From: a virus
Taxonomy: Duplodnaviria > Heunggongvirae > Uroviricota > Caudoviricetes
Strand: one strand, 5' to 3'
IMG/VR virus record: IMGVR_UViG_2547132272_000004
Span: 1 to 7,276 of that record
Length of the DNA stretch: 7,276 nucleotides
Shown here: positions 1 to 7,276 of the stretch, piece after piece
Position numbering within the stretch: the first letter of the stretch is position 1
Layout: the number at the start of each line of letters is the position of its first letter
Position numbers and translations under genes: made by a program
Notes under the pieces: generated by a model
Seen by the model: only the letters and a program-made list of their open reading frames with translations
Told to the model about the DNA's origin: nothing
The model's database searches: none

Positions 1-10
1 AAAATTCACT

Positions 11-66
11 TTAAAAAGGGCGGACATCAGCCAGCAATGAAACTGATGCCGCCAAAAGGTAATCAA
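11..66 (-). ncRNA. dicF: DicF-like small RNA (3' end is an intrinsic terminator); 5' boundary approximate
   Basis: Minus strand reads ...GATTACCTTTTGGCGGCATCAGTTTCATTGCTGGCTGATGTCCGCCCTTTTTAAAG. The GGCGG-ATCAG ... CCGCCC-UUUUU part matches my recollection of the E. coli Qin DicF 3' half. It lies downstream of the dicA-side leftward operon, as in Qin. The 5' part differs from the K-12 sequence as I remember it. Confidence 0.4.
13..53 (-). terminator. Rho-independent terminator of the leftward early operon
   Basis: On the minus strand, stem GGCGGCATCAG / CTGATG(T)CCGCC (forward 19..30 pairs with 43..53, one bulged base), 12-nt loop, followed by a U5 run (forward A-run 13..17). Confidence 0.65.
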
Positions 67-393
67 CATGGGTTGTTGCAGCGGGGTTGTCACTCAGGCG
101 TATGGTCAACCTGACAACCCGGTGTTATCTCGAGGAAAAGATAGCCTCGCCATACTTACCGCCGCGCCATTTCGCGGATTGCCACAACCGGAAGCGCACG
201 GTCGAAGATGCCGGTGGCACGCAACAGAGGGAGAAATAACTTCGCCGTGCGCTTTCGCGTTATGCCCTGACTTTTCAGGGATATATCCTTTCAGTAAACT
301 GTCAGTGCCGGATTCTTATCCGTGTCCGGCGCACGACAACACGCTGTCACGTGTGGTCTCCATTCTCAACCAGTAACCTCAATGGAGGATAAA

Positions 394-636
394 ATGCCAA
401 CAAAACTATGCCCAGCCTGTAATTCTTCGTCTGATTTCTCAGAGAAGAATGGTTATTATATTTTTGATTGCCCGAAACACGGTGTATTCCATATATCAAA
501 ACTTGATGGGATATTTGTGAAACCAAGTCAGTATCAGGCTGACAAGTTAAATAAAATTCTCAATGCCAAAAGAGCGCCAGGCTATACGGGACCTATAGAG
601 GTTTTACCGCGTCCTCGTCTTGTGGAACTGGATTAA
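394..636 (+). CDS. hypothetical small zinc-ribbon-like protein (80 aa), antisense to the leftward operon
   Basis: ATG at 394 with GGAGG at 384..388 (5-nt spacer). CxxC (C6,C9) ... CxxH (C26,H29) pattern. Region visibly AT-rich. The 3' end overlaps the convergent 186-aa gene by 44 bp. An in-frame ATG at 382 has no SD. Confidence 0.5.
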   Translation: MPTKLCPACNSSSDFSEKNGYYIFDCPKHGVFHISKLDGIFVKPSQYQADKLNKILNAKRAPGYTGPIEVLPRPRLVELD

Positions 637-1153
637 ACCAGTGCTCCTGAATCGCTCGTATTTTTACCCTCGGATGATTGCCGGGGGTGATTATTAATTC
701 TGGCGGACATGGTTCTCCATTATGACAAATTGCGCTATAAGTGAAATCAGCCAGAGCAGTGCCGGTCATTATTATTCCGAACTTATCAAGCAGCGAGAGC
801 AAATCACGCAAACAGGAGTTATCAGTTTTTTCGTTATAAAATGAATCCCCTGATGCAGAGAGCATTTCACCTCGCTCTGCGATGCGTTTGACCATTTTCC
901 AGAATTCTTTTTTTGAATACTTTTCCTCGACATAAAAACCCATCGCCGAGGCAATCCGCTTTGCAGCTTCTTCAGTATCCTGGTTGTTTGTTACCGAAAC
1001 AGAGTACAATCCGATAAACGCATCGCGCACATTACGAGCCATATTATCAGTGTCTTTTTTCGTTACCGATTCCAATGCAAGTTCGTTCAGGTGTTGACGG
1101 AGTGTCTGTGCTGCAATCTCCTGGATTGATAGTGGTAAATCTTTAAATTCCAT
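593..1153 (-). CDS. hypothetical protein (186 aa), unknown function, in the early-left operon downstream of the ydfA/ydfB-like genes
   Basis: Long clean ORF. ATG at 1153..1151 with GGGG 6 nt upstream, 11 nt after the stop of the preceding small gene. Protein-like composition. No family recognised from the sequence. Confidence 0.7.
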   Translation of the reverse strand: MEFKDLPLSIQEIAAQTLRQHLNELALESVTKKDTDNMARNVRDAFIGLYSVSVTNNQDTEEAAKRIASAMGFYVEEKYSKKEFWKMVKRIAERGEMLSASGDSFYNEKTDNSCLRDLLSLLDKFGIIMTGTALADFTYSAICHNGEPCPPELIITPGNHPRVKIRAIQEHWFNPVPQDEDAVKPL

Positions 1154-1164
1154 CTTTAACCCCG

Positions 1165-1293
1165 TTAGCCGTTAGATTTTGCCGAACTGGAAAGCGCCTG
1201 TTTAAACTCACTGAAGCTGAGAGCTTCTTCGCCTTCGGCAAGGCCTTCGAAGTATTCTTCGTAAGCCTTTTCCATGATTGTGTCGAAATCCAT
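1165..1293 (-). CDS. small acidic protein (42 aa), YdfB-like by position and size
   Basis: MDFDTIMEKAYEEYFEGLAEGEEALSFSEFKQALSSSAKSNG. ATG 1293..1291 preceded by AGGTGA. Starts 1 nt after the stop of the upstream small gene. Same length and position as ydfB in Qin. An alternative in-frame ATG at 1335 would give 57 aa. Confidence 0.5.
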   Translation of the reverse strand: MDFDTIMEKAYEEYFEGLAEGEEALSFSEFKQALSSSAKSNG

Positions 1294-1294
1294 A

Positions 1295-1450
1295 TCACTC
1301 ACCTGAGTTTCTTTCCAGCCAGCGACGGGCACCATTTTCGGTTTTAAACGTTTTGCTTTTGGTATACGTCATCGCGGTGAACGTACCGTCCTGGTTGGGG
1401 AACACGCCACATACCAGAGATTCGCTGTTGCCAAGATCGATAGTATCCAT
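1295..1450 (-). CDS. small protein (51 aa), YdfA-like by position and size
   Basis: MDTIDLGNSESLVCGVFPNQDGTFTAMTYTKSKTFKTENGARRWLERNSGE. ATG 1450..1448 with GAGGT 4 nt upstream. First gene downstream of the leftward promoter. The ORF-track version extends to 1543, but that extension covers the promoter. Confidence 0.5.
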   Translation of the reverse strand: MDTIDLGNSESLVCGVFPNQDGTFTAMTYTKSKTFKTENGARRWLERNSGE

Positions 1451-1519
1451 GCTGACCTCATTTCCCCTTAACGCCGGGGTAGCGGAACTGTTTGCTGAGA
1501 ACACCGTGCGGTGTCTTGA

Positions 1520-1580
1520 TGGATGGTAATTTAGTTTTCTCATGAAAATTGGTCAAGTGTTTTTGATGAGAAAACTCAAT
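1520..1580 (-). promoter_or_regulatory. leftward early promoter (sigma70-like) with flanking operator inverted repeat
   Basis: On the minus strand: -35 TTGACC (forward 1551..1556), 17-bp spacer, -10 TAAATT (forward 1528..1533). An 11-bp inverted repeat, AGTTTTCTCAT (1533..1543) and ATGAGAAAACT (1566..1576), brackets the -35. The GAGAAAACT core recurs in the dicA/dicC intergenic palindrome. Confidence 0.5.
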
Positions 1581-1643
1581 ATTTAATGCAAAATAAAGCC
1601 AATACATTGAAATGTAAGGCTTTAAAATTAGTGAAGGGGGGGG

Positions 1644-2051
1644 TTATTGATGTTTGTTACGTTTGCGAGCTTCTAGTAGCTCGGTGAATAGGCGATTAAA
1701 ATTCTCAACGCGGGCACGGAGTTCGCTGATTTGTGCTTGCTGCTCTGATTTTGGAAGTGCGCGATACAATCGCAACATCTCCAACTCATCTTCCGATAAG
1801 TCTAAGGCGCTGTTGAGTGCAACTGGTGGATCTGGTGTTTTATCCTCGTCACCAAACAGTATCCAAGTTGGTGAACATTGCAATACCTCAGCCAGGCGAT
1901 GCAAATTTTGCCCGCGCGGGGCTGTATGGTCGCTTTCCCATAGTGAAATTGATGAGCCAGATACGCCAGCAGCTTTGCTTAAATCGTTTTGACTTAAACC
2001 AACCTGTTTGCGTCTTTCTCTAATTCGTTGGCCTAAAGTTTTCTCGTTCAT
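1644..2051 (-). CDS. dicA: DicA-like prophage repressor (XRE-family HTH, 135 aa, no peptidase domain)
   Basis: Translation MNEKTLGQRIRERRK...LQCSPTWILFGDEDK...RARVENFNRLFTELLEARKRNKHQ matches E. coli Qin DicA as I recall it, including LQCSPTWILFGDEDK and the C-terminal RARV.NFN.LF.ELL.AR motif. An upstream in-frame ATG at 2102 would add 17 aa but lies in the operator region. Confidence 0.85.
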   Translation of the reverse strand: MNEKTLGQRIRERRKQVGLSQNDLSKAAGVSGSSISLWESDHTAPRGQNLHRLAEVLQCSPTWILFGDEDKTPDPPVALNSALDLSEDELEMLRLYRALPKSEQQAQISELRARVENFNRLFTELLEARKRNKHQ

Positions 2052-2128
2052 ATTTAGATATCTTAATAACCCTTGACTTGAGATTCCTTGAGTGATTACC
2101 ATTGAGAAAACTCAACTTTGGAGGGGTG
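2052..2128. promoter_or_regulatory. divergent promoter/operator region between the DicA-like and DicC-like genes
   Basis: 77-bp intergenic region. Perfect 14-bp palindrome TTGAGAAAACTCAA at 2102..2115. Direct CTTGAG repeats at about 2078 and 2087. Plus-strand -35-like TTGACT at 2073..2078. 8-bp palindrome AGATATCT at 2056..2063. Exact -10 elements not confidently placed. Confidence 0.55.
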
Positions 2129-2356
2129 ATGTTTAAATCAGACGTAATTAATTTTTATGGGACGAAAGCCAAAGTAGCGAAAGCTGCTGGTGTTGATCCA
2201 TCTGCTGTTTCTCAATGGGGAGAACTGGTTCCTGAAGGTCGCGCGATGCGCCTGCAAGAGGCATCTGGCGGGGAACTTCAGTACGATCCCAAAGTTTATG
2301 ACGAATATCGTAAGGCAAAGCGTGCGGGGCGGTTGAACAATGAAAATCACCCCTGA
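2129..2356 (+). CDS. dicC: DicC/YdaS-like Cro-type HTH regulator (75 aa)
   Basis: ATG 2129 with GGAGG at 2120..2124. FYGTKAKVAKAAGVDPSAVSQWGELVPEGRAMRLQEASGG is the Cro/YdaS/DicC-type HTH signature. Divergent from the DicA-like gene. Confidence 0.75.
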   Translation: MFKSDVINFYGTKAKVAKAAGVDPSAVSQWGELVPEGRAMRLQEASGGELQYDPKVYDEYRKAKRAGRLNNENHP

Positions 2357-2891
2357 ACAGGTTTGTGAGGCTCTGGATGCCTGGGTATGCCGACCAGGAA
2401 TGACACAGGAGCAGGCGACGATATTAATCACAGAAGCCTTCTGGGCCCTGAAAGAACGCCCGAACATCGATGTTCAACGCGTCACGTTTGATGATGGCGC
2501 GGTTGATCAACGGGCGCTGGGCGTTAACCGGGTGAAGATATTCGAACGCTGGAAAGCTATCGACACCAGGGATAAGCGTGAAAAATTCACGGCGCTGATT
2601 CCGGCAATTATGGAGGCTATCCGGATCAGCGATTTCAGGTTGTATTGTGAAATTACTGACGGAAAAAGCATTACGTACATGATCGCCGGGTTAAACAAAG
2701 AATATGGCGATGTGGTGGAGTCCGGGCTGCTTTTTGCGGATCCAGCTGTTGTGGAACGTGAGACTGACGAGCTTATAGAAAAAGCTATTGCTTTCAAGCA
2801 CGCGTATCGTCAGCAATACCAATATTACTTTGCAGATAAACAAATATCTGTCTGGGGTTCGTATGAGTATCGATGCACTACGATGGGCTAA
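2340..2891 (+). CDS. CII-position protein, possibly YdaT-like (183 aa)
   Basis: ATG 2340 overlaps the DicC-like stop by 17 bp, and its 3' end overlaps the next gene (translational coupling). Position matches the RacR-YdaS-YdaT arrangement. The family name is assigned from position and length, not from a confirmed motif. Confidence 0.6.
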   Translation: MKITPEQVCEALDAWVCRPGMTQEQATILITEAFWALKERPNIDVQRVTFDDGAVDQRALGVNRVKIFERWKAIDTRDKREKFTALIPAIMEAIRISDFRLYCEITDGKSITYMIAGLNKEYGDVVESGLLFADPAVVERETDELIEKAIAFKHAYRQQYQYYFADKQISVWGSYEYRCTTMG

Positions 2892-3903
2892 AAAGGTGAA
2901 AACCGGCAGTTCATCCAGTAAGTCAGTATTGACCTGGCTTGCTGATATGTGCGGTGCCGATTTGTGTGCATACCCGTCTGTATCAGCCCTGGCAGAAGTA
3001 ACGGAACTGAACAAAAAGACTGTGCAGGACAGCTTACGACACCTGATGGAGATTGGGTTAATTGTTGATACCGGTGAGAGAAAAGGCAGAACAAAGCAAA
3101 TTGTGGTGTACCGACTTATCGGTGTAGAAGAAAGTGTTGCCGAGCCTGAATACACCCAAAAACGGGAGTCTTTAAAGGTGGGTAAAATTGGTGCTGTTAA
3201 TAAAAACAGTACCGAAAACGGTTATGTTTCAGCACAAAACAGACCCAAAAACGGAACTCTTAACTGCATGGAAAATAACCAAAGACACCCAAATTTTCCA
3301 TTAAAGACACCCAAAAACGGATCACGGAACCCAAAGGAACCCAAAGATCTAAACCCCACACATAACGCACGCGAGAGTGCTCCGACCAGTGAGCAGGATG
3401 TTTTGTCGTTACAGGCAACGCCCCCTGTATTCCTGGATGGCCTGAGCGAACCCATCGGAAAATTTCCGATGACCGATAGCTGGCATCCGTCGCGGGATTT
3501 TCGGCGACGGGCTGCGTTGTGGGGGATGGCTTTGCCGGAACCAGAATTTACACCTGCTGAACTTGCCGCCTTCCGGGACTACTGGGCAGCGGAGGGGAAA
3601 GTTTTCACGCAGGTTCAGTGGGAGCAGAAATTCGCCCGTCACGTAAATCACGTCAGGGCGCAGGCTAAACCAGTCAGCAAGGGGGTAAACCATGCAGCAG
3701 CACCAGGTGGCACCGCATCACGGGCAGTTCAGGAAATTCGGGCAGCACGTGAGCGGTGGGAGCGTGAAAACGGATTTATCAACGACGGAAACTGCCTGGA
3801 AGCTGTGGGAACTCATGGGGGAGGTTTATTCGAACCGCTGGACCCAGAAGAACGGGGCCGCACCTTCGAAGCTCTGGATTGCACAGATTGGCGCGATGAC
3901 TGA
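2863..3903 (+). CDS. replication initiator, lambda O-like organisation (N-terminal winged-HTH, iteron-encoding linker, C-terminal domain)
   Basis: ATG 2863 (MSIDALRWAKK...). The N-terminal 90 aa look like a wHTH DNA-binding domain. The central low-complexity stretch is encoded by iteron-like DNA repeats. A P-like gene follows. Confidence 0.7.
   Translation: MSIDALRWAKKVKTGSSSSKSVLTWLADMCGADLCAYPSVSALAEVTELNKKTVQDSLRHLMEIGLIVDTGERKGRTKQIVVYRLIGVEESVAEPEYTQKRESLKVGKIGAVNKNSTENGYVSAQNRPKNGTLNCMENNQRHPNFPLKTPKNGSRNPKEPKDLNPTHNARESAPTSEQDVLSLQATPPVFLDGLSEPIGKFPMTDSWHPSRDFRRRAALWGMALPEPEFTPAELAAFRDYWAAEGKVFTQVQWEQKFARHVNHVRAQAKPVSKGVNHAAAPGGTASRAVQEIRAARERWERENGFINDGNCLEAVGTHGGGLFEPLDPEERGRTFEALDCTDWRDD
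3152..3347. repeat. iteron-like direct repeats (putative prophage origin) inside the initiator gene
   Basis: Perfect 12-mer ACCCAAAAACGG at 3154..3165, 3243..3254 and 3309..3320. Degenerate copies at 3211..3221 (ACCGAAAACGG), 3288..3294, 3329..3337 and 3339..3347. AAAGACACCCAAA occurs at 3281..3293 and 3303..3315. Confidence 0.55.
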
Positions 3904-4357
3904 GCAGCAAATCCGGCAGGTCTGCCGCCAGTGCATGGACCGTTGCAGGGCAGGTGAAACATGGCCTCCGGACCTGGCTGAGTTTGTGGCGCTGATTTCG
4001 GAAAGCGGGGCCAATCCATTTGGTCTGACGGTGGATGCTGTGATGGAGGAGTACCGACGCTGGCGCAATGAGTCCTGGCGATACGACGGAAGCGATAAAT
4101 ATCCGTGGCCTCAGCCTGTGCTGTATCACATTTGCCTCGAGATGCGTTCAAAGGGGATTGAGCGCCAGATGACCGAAGGTGAGTTAAAACGACTTGCAGA
4201 ACGGCAACTGGCGAAATGGGCAAAGCATGTTGGTGACGGCTTCAGCGTTCCGCCCGTACGGCGGCAACTGGCAGCACCAAAACGCCCGTCGGGGCCAACA
4301 CCAATTGAGTTGCTGAAACAGGAGTATGAACGCCGGAAAGCGGCTGGTTTTGTATGA
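3692..4357 (+). CDS. lambda P-like replication protein (helicase loader); start uncertain
   Basis: The C-terminal half (..WPPDLAEFVAL..KYPWPQP..) resembles lambda P as I recall it. ATG 3692 has GGGGG 6 nt upstream but would overlap the O-like gene by 212 bp in another frame. Alternative starts are ATG 3815 and ATG 3896, the latter in an ATGACTGA coupling arrangement. Confidence 0.6.
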   Translation: MQQHQVAPHHGQFRKFGQHVSGGSVKTDLSTTETAWKLWELMGEVYSNRWTQKNGAAPSKLWIAQIGAMTEQQIRQVCRQCMDRCRAGETWPPDLAEFVALISESGANPFGLTVDAVMEEYRRWRNESWRYDGSDKYPWPQPVLYHICLEMRSKGIERQMTEGELKRLAERQLAKWAKHVGDGFSVPPVRRQLAAPKRPSGPTPIELLKQEYERRKAAGFV

Positions 4358-4387
4358 ATTGTGAAGGTGATTTTTTCAGGAGGATTT

Positions 4388-4615
4388 ATGGCGAAACCTT
4401 TTTCTCTCGAACAGCGGGAAGAGCTGAAGGCACGAATTATCGGATTGGTACGCAAAAATGGACGCATGACGATGTCACAGCTGGAGAGAGCGACGGGAGC
4501 AGGCTGGCATTCGGTTCGACGCTGCCTTGTGGATGTGCTGGCTTGTGGCGATTTATACATGTCCGGTAAATACGGTGTTTTTTGCATCAGAGCAGGCGTA
4601 TCGCGTATGGCGTAA
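4388..4615 (+). CDS. hypothetical small protein (75 aa), possible winged-helix DNA-binding fold
   Basis: ATG 4388 with AGGAGG at 4378..4383. The segment MTMSQLERATGAGWHSVRRCLVDVL is HTH-like. Contains the T6 run at 4578..4583. Confidence 0.6.
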   Translation: MAKPFSLEQREELKARIIGLVRKNGRMTMSQLERATGAGWHSVRRCLVDVLACGDLYMSGKYGVFCIRAGVSRMA

Positions 4616-4784
4616 GACACCGGAGAAAAGAACCGACCTGACACTGATTCGAAAGTTACCAGACGGAGAAATACGCCGCTACGACAGGCGTCAGAACATA
4701 ATCTGTAGCGAGTGCCGGAAGAGCGAAGCTATGCAGCGCGTACTGGCGTTTTATCAGGGTAATTTTCAGGAGGTGGTGCGGTGA
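4533..4784 (+). CDS. hypothetical ORF overlapping the preceding gene, possibly its frameshifted continuation
   Basis: No start codon or SD lies downstream of the 4615 stop in this frame. The 3' end is coupled to the next gene (GTGA at 4781..4784). A one-base change in the T6 run at 4578..4583 would fuse it in frame to the 4388 ORF. Confidence 0.35.
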   Translation: MCWLVAIYTCPVNTVFFASEQAYRVWRKTPEKRTDLTLIRKLPDGEIRRYDRRQNIICSECRKSEAMQRVLAFYQGNFQEVVR

Positions 4785-5047
4785 GTGAATCAAAATGCCA
4801 GGTTAAGGGCAACAAGATAGAACCATGTGCAGCACTGGCAAAGTCCCTTGAGCATGATGCTGAATACACGATGCGAAAAGGTCTGCTGATATACAAAGTC
4901 TGGAATGAGAATTTAACTCGCGCCCCTGATTTGGTGATGTTGCGTTCCGGTGAATTTTCTAAATCACCTATTCGAGTCTCATTTTGCCCGTTCTGTGGTG
5001 AAAGTCTGAAAACATGGAAAAAGGAGACAACCAGTGAGCAAGATTGA
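4781..5047 (+). CDS. hypothetical small protein (88 aa) with C-terminal CPFC motif
   Basis: GTG start at 4781 with AGGAGG at 4768..4773 (7-nt spacer). Cysteines at C6, C16 and C69-x2-C72. Confidence 0.6.
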   Translation: MSESKCQVKGNKIEPCAALAKSLEHDAEYTMRKGLLIYKVWNENLTRAPDLVMLRSGEFSKSPIRVSFCPFCGESLKTWKKETTSEQD

Positions 5048-5933
5048 CTATCAGGCACTGCGTGAGGCGGCGGAACGTGCAATTCCAGCAATGGAACGCC
5101 TGTTAATGTTGCCAGCTGATGATGATTTGTTAAGTGAACAGGAACTTAAAGATTACGGTGTGGATATTGATGCGCTCAACGCCTTCAAATTTCTGGCCGG
5201 ACCAGAAACCGTGCTGGCACTACTGGATGAACGGGAAAGAAACCAGCAATACATAAAACGCCGAGACCAGGAAAACGAAATGATGGTTGATGCCATGCAC
5301 GCGGCTATTGCCCTGACAAGTGTTGGAATAGACCTGGACGATTACGACGAATGCGTCTTGCGACTACATGAATGGGGCGCTTTACCTGACTATTGCATTG
5401 CGCTTTATGTGGATTTCGTTCACGGAATTGTATCGAAAAACAAACTTCTGGATTTTGGTTATATCAACGGTGCACCGGTATGGACGTTGCGTGATGAGCT
5501 GGAAGCCGCAGAGAACAACCTTATTGATAGTGAGTGCCATGTTGCTGAACTGGAAGAAGCGCTACGCGATAAGCAGGCGTTACTTGAAGCATCAGAGAAG
5601 CGCATAGCAGAACTGGAAACAAAAGCGAACCAGCAAACCAGAATAAGCGATAAGGGGCTGACAAAGCTGATTGCCGATGCTGACAAAATGCTGGGTATGC
5701 GTTCGCCGGTTATAGACAGCGAGTGGTGGACGCTTTTACGGCAGTTCCTGATTGAACTTCAGGATCGCCGCAGAAACAGCATTTCTGAATCTGGAATCCG
5801 TGCTGAAACCCTGAATGATTTAATCCGACATATTGACAGAAACCTGGATATTGACGCGATGAAATCGCCGTTTGAACTGTCATCTGAAATTGTGGATTAC
5901 GTTAATAGGCAACTGCACAAGGAGAATTCGTAA
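5034..5933 (+). CDS. hypothetical coiled-coil protein (299 aa); N-terminus reminiscent of Ead/Ea22-like prophage proteins
   Basis: GTG start at 5034 with AAGGAGA at 5021..5027. The N-terminal M.IDYQALREAAERA resembles Ead/Ea22-like N-termini from memory only. Central heptad-like acidic region (ELEAAENNLIDSECHVAELEEALRDKQALLEASEKRIAELE). Confidence 0.65.
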   Translation: MSKIDYQALREAAERAIPAMERLLMLPADDDLLSEQELKDYGVDIDALNAFKFLAGPETVLALLDERERNQQYIKRRDQENEMMVDAMHAAIALTSVGIDLDDYDECVLRLHEWGALPDYCIALYVDFVHGIVSKNKLLDFGYINGAPVWTLRDELEAAENNLIDSECHVAELEEALRDKQALLEASEKRIAELETKANQQTRISDKGLTKLIADADKMLGMRSPVIDSEWWTLLRQFLIELQDRRRNSISESGIRAETLNDLIRHIDRNLDIDAMKSPFELSSEIVDYVNRQLHKENS

Positions 5934-6109
5934 TGCAGGTGGCATTTGTTGGCTTGTTACCGCATCCGATCCGCCTTTGGGCGGATATGTCACTCATAAA
6001 AACGCATTTTTTTACTACTGATGGCGGCATTCCGGCACCAAAGCGCCGCCATACCGGTATTGCAGCGGCACGACGAGCAGCAAAGAGACGCAGGAGAGCA
6101 AAACGATGA
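5933..6109 (+). CDS. hypothetical small protein (58 aa), hydrophobic N-terminus and Arg/Lys-rich tail
   Basis: ATG 5933 overlaps the upstream stop (TAATG), with AAGGAGAA 6 nt upstream. Below the ORF-track size cutoff. Two GC-rich hairpins lie within it, so coding status is uncertain. Confidence 0.35.
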   Translation: MQVAFVGLLPHPIRLWADMSLIKTHFFTTDGGIPAPKRRHTGIAAARRAAKRRRRAKR

Positions 6110-6294
6110 AAAACCGTAAAGCAAAGATTCTGTTAGCTCGCAGAAACGGTGTTGGGGTCTGGCGATGGTTGAGGATTAGTAACAGACGAGTGAGGTTGAC
6201 GGGGTGTTGCGGGGTGATGGGTCACAGCTGTTGCAAAAAGCCCAGCGCGGCGCAAAACCGCTGGAAAAACCACTTGCGCACTAAAGGAGAGTGA
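6106..6294 (+). CDS. hypothetical small basic protein (62 aa), Arg- and Cys-rich
   Basis: ATG 6106 overlaps the previous stop (ATGA), with AGGAG 9 nt upstream. Stop is 1 nt before the HNH gene start. Unusual composition. Confidence 0.35.
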   Translation: MKNRKAKILLARRNGVGVWRWLRISNRRVRLTGCCGVMGHSCCKKPSAAQNRWKNHLRTKGE

Positions 6295-6295
6295 T

Positions 6296-6661
6296 ATGGC
6301 ACTGACGAAAAAACAACGTGCAGAACTGCGCATGAAGTTCGGCGGTCGCTGCGCTTATTGCGGCTGCGAACTTGGCGAAAAGTGGCATGCAGACCATGTA
6401 AAACCGGTCATTCGTTTTGATGGAAATATGCTTCACCAGGAACGTGACGATATATCCAACATGGTTCCGGCATGCCACCCATGCAATCTGCACAAGCATT
6501 GCAGTAGCCTGGAAGATTATCGGCGAATTATCAGTGATGGTCGTCGTGAATTCCTTGCGTCCGGGAAAGGCAAAGCGCTGGTTCGTATGGGATTGGTTGA
6601 AATGAAACCTGACCCGGTTGTGTTCTGGTTTGAAAAATATCAAGAAGGGGCTACAGCATGA
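6296..6661 (+). CDS. HNH endonuclease (121 aa)
   Basis: AAGGAGA at 6283..6289 before ATG 6296. Canonical HNH/zinc-finger pattern: CAYCGC ... HADHVKP ... [14 protein letters not shown]. Confidence 0.85.
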
Positions 6662-7002
6662 CGACTTTTACCAGAGAGCAGTTAATAGCTCACGCAGAGG
6701 AGACTATTGAAGCACAGAGACTGTGCATACCGGGCACAATCGACCATGACATCATCCGCACATATAAGATGGATATTGCTGTTCTGGAAATCGCACTGGT
6801 ATCGCTGGCAGCAGAGCCAGCCGGTAAATTGCATGAATACAAACCAGTGGGATATCAGCGTCTGGTTGATGAGTTAATCATGCTGGTAAAGCAGTTAACC
6901 TGGCAACTGAGGAAAGCGAAGCCAGACTGCAAATTACCGGATAAGGCGATGAGTTATCTGGAGCGGAACGGACTGATAAGCGTGGAGGATATTTTACGAT
7001 GA
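6658..7002 (+). CDS. hypothetical protein (114 aa)
   Basis: ATG 6658 overlaps the HNH stop (ATGA), consistent with translational coupling. Protein-like composition. No family recognised. Confidence 0.6.
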
Positions 7003-7235
7003 CTGGCCTGAAGCATTCACAACGGTAGGAATTGCGATGGCAGTGGCGCTGGTGGTGTATTCGATTTGCCGCTGGGGATAAAAACGGTTTGCGGGAAAAA
7101 GGGAGTTAAGTAAAATTGCTGCGGGTGCTTGAGGCTATCTGTCTCAGGCATGAACACCAAAAGGCAGATAGAGAAAAGCCCCAGTTAACATTACGCGTCC
7201 TGCAAGACGCTTAACATTAATCTGAGGCCCAATCT

Positions 7236-7276
7236 ATGTCTCACAAATGTAGGTTAGCCTCTTACGTGCCGAAAGG
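7236..7276 (+). CDS. possible 5' end of a CDS running off the window (MSHKCRLASYVPK...)
   Basis: ATG 7236 with GAGG at 7224..7227. Open to the window end. Only 13 codons are visible. Confidence 0.25.
   Translation, partial: MSHKCRLASYVPK

Follow-up and report, generated by a model that had tools for sequence, protein, structure and literature searches.

The DNA analyzed here (the window) is positions 1 to 7,276 of IMG/VR virus record IMGVR_UViG_2547132272_000004, a 7,276-nt stretch assigned to the Caudoviricetes, and it corresponds to the early-right part of a lambdoid prophage of the Rac/PPompW type, ~96% identical to Enterobacteria phage PPompW. A dicA-like repressor gene, a dicC-like gene, a YdaT-like gene, an O-like replication initiator gene, and a P-like helicase loader gene follow one another in this region, and the last two share 212 nt. 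We conclude, with a probability of about 0.85, that this junction is a genuine, anciently conserved, same-strand out-of-frame overlap of the initiator and helicase-loader genes of the lambdoid replication module. As judged from comparative sequence data, the initiator would be translated from 2863 through the TGA ending at 3903, and the loader from an internal Shine-Dalgarno sequence (3680-3685) and the ATG at 3692, giving a protein of 221 aa. The features of the junction are the following.

2863..3903, + strand: O-like replication initiator, 346 aa (ATG 2863, TGA 3901-3903), with N-terminal HTH_36, iteron-bearing linker, DnaT domain, and C-terminal tail
3692..4357, + strand: P-like helicase loader, full length 221 aa (frame open 3689-4357), identified by PF06992, phrog_109, and collinearity with lambda P
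3680-3685, + strand: Shine-Dalgarno AGGGGG of the P-like gene, 6 nt before ATG 3692 and inside the O codons for Lys-Gly-Val
3692-3903, + strand: dual-coding overlap, 212 nt, encoding O residues 277-346 plus the stop codon and P residues 1-70
3815-3817, + strand: in-frame ATG (M42), an internal Met of the P helix 29-46
3896-3903, + strand: ATGACTGA, comprising an in-frame ATG (M69) and the O stop TGA 3901-3903; the RefSeq/GenBank P start in E. coli

An earlier reading of this stretch from its letters alone (the sequence-only reading) had placed the P-like start at ATG 3692 behind a good Shine-Dalgarno sequence and had found the O-like frame without a stop until 3903, so that up to 212 nt are read in two frames; these coordinates were all verified, with AGGGGG as the Shine-Dalgarno sequence, and its labels "O-like" and "P-like" agree with Pfam and PHROG matches. 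It left three options unranked: a genuine overlap, a P start at 3815 or 3896, and a frameshift or sequencing error. The first of these is borne out by the comparisons below, and the other two are not.

Conservation of the overlap and selection on both frames

We compared 37 species-level Enterobacterales loci (loader identity 43-92%), 80 close IMG/VR contigs, and several Vibrio-phage loci. Aligning both proteins with their homologues, the check proposed by the sequence-only reading, showed that the overlap recurs with both frames open and with conserved residues in each in 40 loci, namely the window, 33 of the 37 Enterobacterales species loci, and six Vibrio-phage loci. Its length is 149-230 nt (median 212), and P lies in the +1 frame of O in all 40, as it does across the 212 nt of the window. 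An ATG is found 42-57 codons upstream of the invariant Lys-Asn-Gly (KNG) of the loader in every lineage, preceded in most of them at 5-9 nt by GGAGGT, GAGG, or GGGGG, the usual source of which is an O Gly-Gly pair, "GGA GGT". The O codon that supplies the "AT" of the P start is xAT in 25/25 lineages, a partly circular count that we use descriptively only, the start having been chosen inside an open frame. The O stop is also held in place relative to the start of KNG, most Enterobacterales loci having it at +56 to +71 nt and the six Vibrio phages at +35 to +59 nt. The window region is present in 1,256 of 5,426 complete E. coli genomes, and 1,249 complete E. coli genomes have the identical junction architecture; within the IMG/VR set, one contig (L041) encodes a P protein 100% identical to that of the window. 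A repeat IMG/VR scan returned mostly E. coli contigs already in the set, and a search with the C-terminal 154 aa of O returned mainly partial E. coli and Klebsiella entries, with little beyond the alignment used for AlphaFold2 (AF2).

The four exceptions among the 37 species loci are two orphan loaders in Erwinia that lack an initiator (L028 and L036) and two frameshifted or degenerate loci (L037 and L040). The L036 loader has a short N-terminus, and three stops are present in the former initiator frame. The Erwinia P-like genes (L028 2441-3067; L036 2474-3043) have housekeeping genes as neighbors, a TtcA-like gene and a phosphotransferase system (PTS) transporter, and they may be domesticated or remnant genes.

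Selection on the P frame was assessed in 25 lineages by holding the O protein of each lineage fixed and resampling synonymous codons at fixed offsets from KNG. P-frame stops at -42 to -17 codons from KNG numbered 0, against 7.8±2.4 expected (0/1000 simulations), while three upstream control windows were close to expectation (14 versus 15.8, 22 versus 23.3, and 19 versus 19.8). An initial test of P-frame openness was partly circular, since the start codon had been picked within an open frame; the fixed-offset version agreed with it. When only the O codons of the window were randomized synonymously, roughly two of every three trials left the P frame open over its initial ~31 codons; the window sequence is thus insufficient to decide, because its P frame would often be open by chance, and it is the comparative data that decide. 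Just upstream of the P start (O codons -67 to -42 from KNG, ~3650-3720 in the window), P-frame stops are enriched across the 25 lineages, with 24 observed and 15.1±3.0 expected. The P frame is typically shut immediately 5' of the ATG, the window reading TAA ACC ATG.

The reciprocal test, with the P protein fixed, gave 3 O-frame stops over P codons -18 to +8, all natural early termini, compared with 27±4.3 expected (0/500 simulations), and downstream of the overlap the same frame showed no such avoidance (61 versus 42 and 33 versus 36 expected). O-frame identity is 0.357, compared with 0.289±0.008 expected from the P constraint, an excess of 0.068, with control values of only 0.02-0.03. Parsimony change counts were made on 72 close and 15 distant sequences. 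For the close set, third positions of O fall from 2.37 changes/site in the O-only region to 0.57 in 3692-3796, and those of P from 3.21 changes/site in the P-only region to 0.82 in 3797-3900 (Mann-Whitney p~1e-4); for the distant set, the values outside and inside the overlap are 3.95 and 2.63 for O (p=3e-4) and 4.01 and 3.09 for P (p=0.02). Variability at third positions inside the overlap is thus lower by ~4-fold in the close set and by 1.3-1.5-fold in the distant set. Open frames, stop avoidance, lowered variability at synonymous positions, and an independent P start recognizable by sequence are all observed, and these are the marks of dual coding.

The overlap is divided between the two proteins as follows, with identities given as mean pairwise values over 25 lineages.

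3712..3774, + strand: O-dominant segment, carrying the O-tail motif TASRAVQEIRAARERWERENG opposite the variable, predicted-disordered P residues 8-28 (the equivalent of lambda P domain I)
3776..3892, + strand: P-dominant segment, carrying the first three P domain II helices (29-46, 48-54, and 60-67) opposite a disordered Gly/acidic O tail
Identity, nt 3712-3774: O 0.36, P 0.16
Identity, nt 3776-3814: O 0.21, P 0.38
Identity, nt 3815-3871: O 0.35, P 0.58
Identity, nt 3872-3900: O 0.23, P 0.49

Codon-position periodicity switches from the O frame to the P frame at ~3775-3790. The AF2 model of the 154-aa C-terminal fragment of O shows a confident DnaT domain, a disordered linker, a single helix (RAVQEIRAARERWERE; nt 3721-3768, fragment residues 95-110), and a disordered tail, and the O-tail motif TASRAVQxIxAARxxWE is conserved where P varies. 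The first ~85 nt of the overlap thus pair a conserved amphipathic O-tail helix with the disordered P N-terminus, and the remaining ~125 nt pair the first three helices of P domain II with the disordered O tail; from segment identities and AF2 models together, the ordered element of each protein faces a disordered element of the other. The remark in the sequence-only reading that the O tail looks less protein-like fits this picture, as the last 70 residues contain 9 Ala, 9 Gly, 9 Glu, 8 Arg, and 6 Asp and are mostly disordered in the AF2 model. By analogy with lambda, the shared bases probably encode the segments through which O and P contact each other.

The tail is not tied to one type of initiator. 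The same tail is found on initiator bodies of the Phage_rep_O (L019), HTH_36/DnaD_N (L020), DUF1376 (L022 and L023), and HTH_36+DnaT (the window, L025, and L033) types and on types without a Pfam match, so that at least five unrelated initiator bodies bear the tail common to this loader type.

Length and start of the loader

The loader belongs to the lambda P family (PF06992) by profile score, by collinearity, and by its position directly 3' of the initiator. The 221-aa form scores 59.0 bits against PF06992 (cutoff 26), with residues 56-188 aligned on profile positions 28-161. The 153-aa form scores only 2 bits less, which makes Pfam indecisive for the start, and PHROG, alignment of diverged homologues, and structure were therefore needed. 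Against phrog_109 ("P-like helicase loader") the 221-aa form scores 212 bits and the 153-aa form 185 bits, a gain of 27. Homologues of 212-223 aa cover 96-100% of the 221-aa loader, down to about 45-50% identity, and residues 37-67 (AWxLWExMGEIYSNRWxxKNGxxPSxLWIAQIG; nt 3800-3892) rank with the best-conserved parts of the protein, with W39, W50, K53, N54, G55, P58, and W62 invariant in 37 loader sequences.

In a phmmer alignment, loader residues 71-194 match lambda P residues 82-203; lambda P residue 82 thus corresponds to loader residue 71, which makes the 221-aa form collinear with the 233-aa lambda P. The AF2 model of the loader, with a mean predicted local distance difference test score (pLDDT) of 67, places residues 1-27 in a disordered segment (pLDDT <50), followed by helices at 29-46, 48-54, 60-67, and 71-86 onward. 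Foldseek matched this model best to the lambda P chains 9oa1_Z/Y/V at probability 1.0, with 200-225 aligned columns (up to 225 of 230); flexible linkage between the domains keeps the template-modeling scores low (0.35-0.42). Lambda P has been divided into domain I (1-29, a disordered N-terminal "lasso"), a compact domain II (~30-119), domain III (120-192), and domain IV (193-233) (PMC12661323). The loader matches this plan, with disorder at 1-27 and helices from 29. With a start at 3896, the protein would lose domain I and roughly half of domain II; with one at 3815, the first helix of domain II (29-46) would be split.

Conventions for the loader start are inconsistent between databases, and most genome annotations miss the long overlap. 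The equivalent of 3896 (153 aa, ATGACTGA junction) is used in the GenBank records Rac-SA53 and pPE4 and in E. coli RefSeq records from the Prokaryotic Genome Annotation Pipeline (PGAP). The PPompW records give a 140-aa loader, and further loader entries are 212-223 aa long. Entries taken from NCBI under the name "replication protein P" (Citrobacter, Klebsiella, and Salmonella) are ~180 aa long; they span 81% of the query and fit the M42 start. Should 3692 be the true start, the inspected RefSeq records of E. coli would lack the first 68 residues of the loader, and the entries of ~180 aa in several other genera appear to lack 41. Structural, phylogenetic, or defense-system work that uses the short entries would then be dealing with a protein without domain I and half of domain II.

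Alternative explanations and remaining doubts

Two shorter forms of the loader compete with the 221-aa form. With a conventional junction, the loader would start at ATG 3896, the overlap would be confined to the 8 nt of ATGACTGA, and the P frame upstream would be untranslated. Such a start has the RefSeq/PGAP and GenBank annotation of the E. coli relatives behind it, including a 153-aa cluster on at least 1000 contigs, and ATGA-type junctions are the rule in lambda, phi80, and phiV10; however, many lineages lack M69, the loader's most conserved block lies upstream of it, the truncation would cost the protein the lambda P domains noted above, and upstream of 3896 the P frame avoids stops and conserves a Shine-Dalgarno sequence and ATG at the far site. 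We regard it as very improbable. The intermediate start at ATG 3815 would give a 180-aa loader and an 89-nt overlap, or both the 221-aa and the 180-aa isoforms might be made. M42 is present in at least 90% of sequences, the ~180-aa entries of Citrobacter, Klebsiella, and Salmonella are consistent with its use, and loader residues 1-27 are variable and disordered. Against this, the position is Leu in two lineages (L023 and L024) and has no Shine-Dalgarno sequence at usable spacing, such a sequence being conserved only at the far-upstream ATG. Moreover, the conserved AWxLWE, including the invariant W39, is upstream of M42 where the O frame varies, the predicted helix 29-46 would be halved, and the P-frame stop avoidance (-42 to -17 from KNG) lies upstream of M42 (-11). 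This start is accordingly unlikely, though it deserves more weight than the one at 3896, and a minor short isoform may still be made.

Other explanations accept the coordinates and differ in what they make of them. An indel or a decayed prophage could have produced an apparent overlap, and there are grounds for the suspicion: the neighboring DUF977 gene has an apparent homopolymer frameshift, and some database entries (L037, P0108, and P0180) are frameshifted O-P fusions. Identical architecture in the 1,249 complete E. coli genomes, the 80 IMG/VR contigs, 33 other species, and six Vibrio phages, together with the 100% identical P of L041, refutes this reading, and the frameshift or sequencing error considered by the sequence-only reading is likewise contradicted by a junction that is constant in more than 100 independent assemblies. 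A programmed +1 frameshift yielding an O-P fusion, comparable with lambda G/GT or IS1 InsAB, would suit a P frame in +1 of O, the fused open reading frames (ORFs) in databases, and the match of phrog_15931 to both proteins. This class is effectively excluded: an XXXYYYZ heptamer is absent from 3692-3903, local RNA structure was not detected (z=+0.56), the context of the O stop is not conserved, and it is an independent Shine-Dalgarno sequence and ATG that are conserved. The fused entries, in addition, switch frame at differing places and resemble indels. These entries include L037 (Leclercia adecarboxylata NCTC13032) 2438-2689, P0108, and P0180, which change frame at differing points, either from P into the O tail or from O into P. 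Indels or assembly errors are their simplest explanation, and their existence accounts for a phrog_15931 profile that matches both proteins.

The strongest remaining doubt is that the overlap is only half functional, the O tail being needed to ~3775 and the remaining ~40 codons being tolerated read-on whose conservation is imposed by P. Several observations weigh against the preferred reading of a fully dual-coding overlap, and the first four of them speak for this alternative. The EE[R/W] of the O tail is the -1 reading of the P Lys-Asn-Gly (AAR AAY GGN), with R/W following the Asn codon, and part of the O-tail conservation is thus dictated by the P frame; the distal O-tail residues are weakly conserved (0.21-0.35) and predicted to be disordered; three Enterobacterales loci (L021, L031, and L039) end the O frame ~11 or more codons early; and the drop at P third positions is modest in the distant set. 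In the close set, third-position diversity is also low upstream of the overlap, at 3617-3676 (0.2-0.9 versus 2-4 changes/site nearby), so part of the 4-fold drop may reflect local genealogy rather than dual coding. The Shine-Dalgarno sequence is weak in some Vibrio phages, the AF2 models are of moderate confidence only (pLDDT 66-67), and the C-terminus of lambda O has no detectable homology to the O-like tail (no significant alignment), though the proposed contact role is taken from lambda. On the other side, O-frame stops are ~9-fold rarer than expected in the distal tail, in a frame that shows no such avoidance downstream; O-frame identity exceeds the P-imposed expectation by more than the controls do; the O stop keeps its position relative to KNG; and the frame has decayed in the orphan L036. 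We judge half-functional read-on to have a small chance of being correct. What is selected in the distal O tail could, even so, be the act of translating through it rather than the peptide. Separately, the low diversity at 3617-3676 may be a recombination or haplotype effect, or a constraint tied to the P ribosome-binding region.

Neighboring features, meaning of the overlap, and known systems

The extent of the O-like gene is that of the coding sequence annotated in PPompW and RefSeq, and its ATG at 2863 overlaps the end of the YdaT-like gene (2340-2891) by 29 nt, as is also annotated in PPompW and E. coli A36. The protein matches the Pfam family PF17948 (DnaT) with 64.3 bits (cutoff 25) at residues 201-268, HTH_36 at residues 36-67 with 20.7 bits, below the cutoff of 25, and the PHROG replication-initiation family phrog_1032 with 305 bits. 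Its score against the NCBIfam DnaT model, 95.9 bits, falls under the equivalog cutoff of 201, and the protein is thus not DnaT itself. A repeat search identified the following element in the linker.

3148-3345, + strand: five copies of AAAGACACCCAAA, arranged as iteron-like direct repeats within the O-like gene

Three of the five AAAGACACCCAAA repeats reach ~37 nt and include AAAACGG. Inspection of the lambda record places the lambda ori iterons inside O, and by analogy the repeats probably mark a putative replication origin inside the initiator gene. On the 3' side of P, the DUF977 gene (region 4361-4784) is divided between two ORFs that overlap (4361-4615 and 4527-4784); the T-run at 4578-4583 has six T, compared with five in the otherwise near-identical E. 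coli A36, where the 131-aa gene is intact. The split reflects a homopolymer frameshift (pseudogene) or else an error of sequencing.

Because the O tail and the N-terminal part of P would be encoded by the same bases, recombination could not part the loader from the tail that recognizes it, and such recombination-proof linkage would account for the presence of one tail on unrelated initiator bodies; it also fits the mosaic boundary, which coincides exactly with the overlap, initiator bodies of at least five families being joined to one tail-plus-loader cassette. Ribosomes translating O would have to cross the ribosome-binding site of P, so P synthesis is probably coupled to or limited by O translation, with some coupling or occlusion likely; around the P start, neither local RNA structure nor an internal promoter (0 promoter-like sites) was detected. 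It is possible, though we offer this tentatively, that the overlap is an evolved linkage device, in which the mosaic recombination that is rampant among temperate phages could swap origin-binding initiator bodies, and even the helicase-binding C-terminal halves of loaders (Vibrio type), without separating the loader from its recruiting tail, in which O ribosomes passing over the P start may set the O:P ratio, and whose logic could also explain why dopC and dopE are never found apart. More generally, the overlap would be a long dual-coding case in a double-stranded DNA temperate phage, conserved between phages of two bacterial orders, and it offers a physical explanation for the P-type specificity of the O C-terminus known from classical genetics. 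The frames can be separated by single bases: T3693C is silent in O (His CAT to CAC) and changes the P start from ATG to ACG, and G3820T is silent in P (Gly GGG to GGT) and converts the O codon GGA to TGA.

Long out-of-frame overlaps are known in phages and the O/P module is classical, and in the literature that we searched, including the DopCE and VdhL papers, no description of an O-like/P-like overlap, or of this 212-nt junction, was found. The closest comparison is lambda itself, in which an initiator with an internal ori is likewise followed by a PF06992 loader. There P is proposed to bind the COOH-terminal region of O, and fragments from the N-terminus of P abolish complementation by O (PMC6022878). 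The two junctions differ in that lambda has a 4-nt ATGA overlap with P in the -1 frame of O, compared with 212 nt and +1 in the window. Lambda also makes O', a minor UGA read-through product of O that ends within the N-terminal coding region of P (Yates 1977, as cited in PMC3640518). O' is a precedent for some translation of the initiator frame across the P start, but it is a minor suppression product, whereas in the window it is the main protein, with no intervening stop, that would cross. Lambda O (L121 87-986) ends in ...LDLTNTDWIYGVDL, the window tail (3872-3900) in ...LDCTDWRDD, and a Klebsiella tail in VDCPDWIDE; the common "TDW" near the O ends may be a terminal acidic/Trp motif or chance. 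Phages phi80 (genes 15/14) and phiV10 also pair a lambdoid initiator with a P-family loader, the phiV10 initiator being of the DnaT type as well, but their junctions are 4 nt long and similarity to the loader begins only at query residue 93 (phi80) or 45 (phiV10). The 4-nt junctions and unmatched N-termini indicate that the long overlap is specific to the AWxLW...KNG loader clade.

Long same-strand out-of-frame overlaps with internal Shine-Dalgarno sequences, in which ordered parts of one protein lie opposite disordered parts of the other, are familiar from the overlapping genes of phiX174 and from lambda Rz/Rz1. The phiX174 overlaps are treated in bioRxiv 10.1101/2020.06.10.143693. As in these systems, a single stretch would yield two proteins through different frames, the second by way of an internal Shine-Dalgarno sequence; unlike them, the overlap in the window is terminal rather than embedded, joins presumed binding partners, and lies at a mosaic recombination boundary.

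Two further systems extend the comparison to other bacteria. DopC and DopE are a domesticated O/P pair of Cellvibrionales and Oceanospirillales whose genes are reported to be always adjacent (PMC5509034, in which the word "overlap" occurs 0 times). DopC combines HTH_36 with a DnaT C-terminal domain and DopE is P-like, which is the domain pair of the window. The VdhL-type loaders of Vibrionaceae are virus-derived, include Vibrio-phage loaders beside lambda-O-like genes, and have weak similarity (~30%) to some PF06992 proteins (PMC11087808). The Vibrio-phage loaders of our set (L124, L125, L127, L128, and L203-L205) have only their N-terminal ~130 residues in common with the P family, with an unrelated C-terminal half and no Pfam domain recorded, and a homologue search with one of them returned only 19 relatives, DopE not among them. 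The loader is without annotation in MG592575 and is cut to 108 aa in OZ195825. These loci nevertheless retain a 191-230 nt overlap, the frame relation, and the tail pattern ...AAR.ER...EEW.G..ID.D. A relationship between their loaders and VdhL (PMC11087808) is possible, and they share with the P protein of the window both the N-terminal ~130 residues and the overlap.

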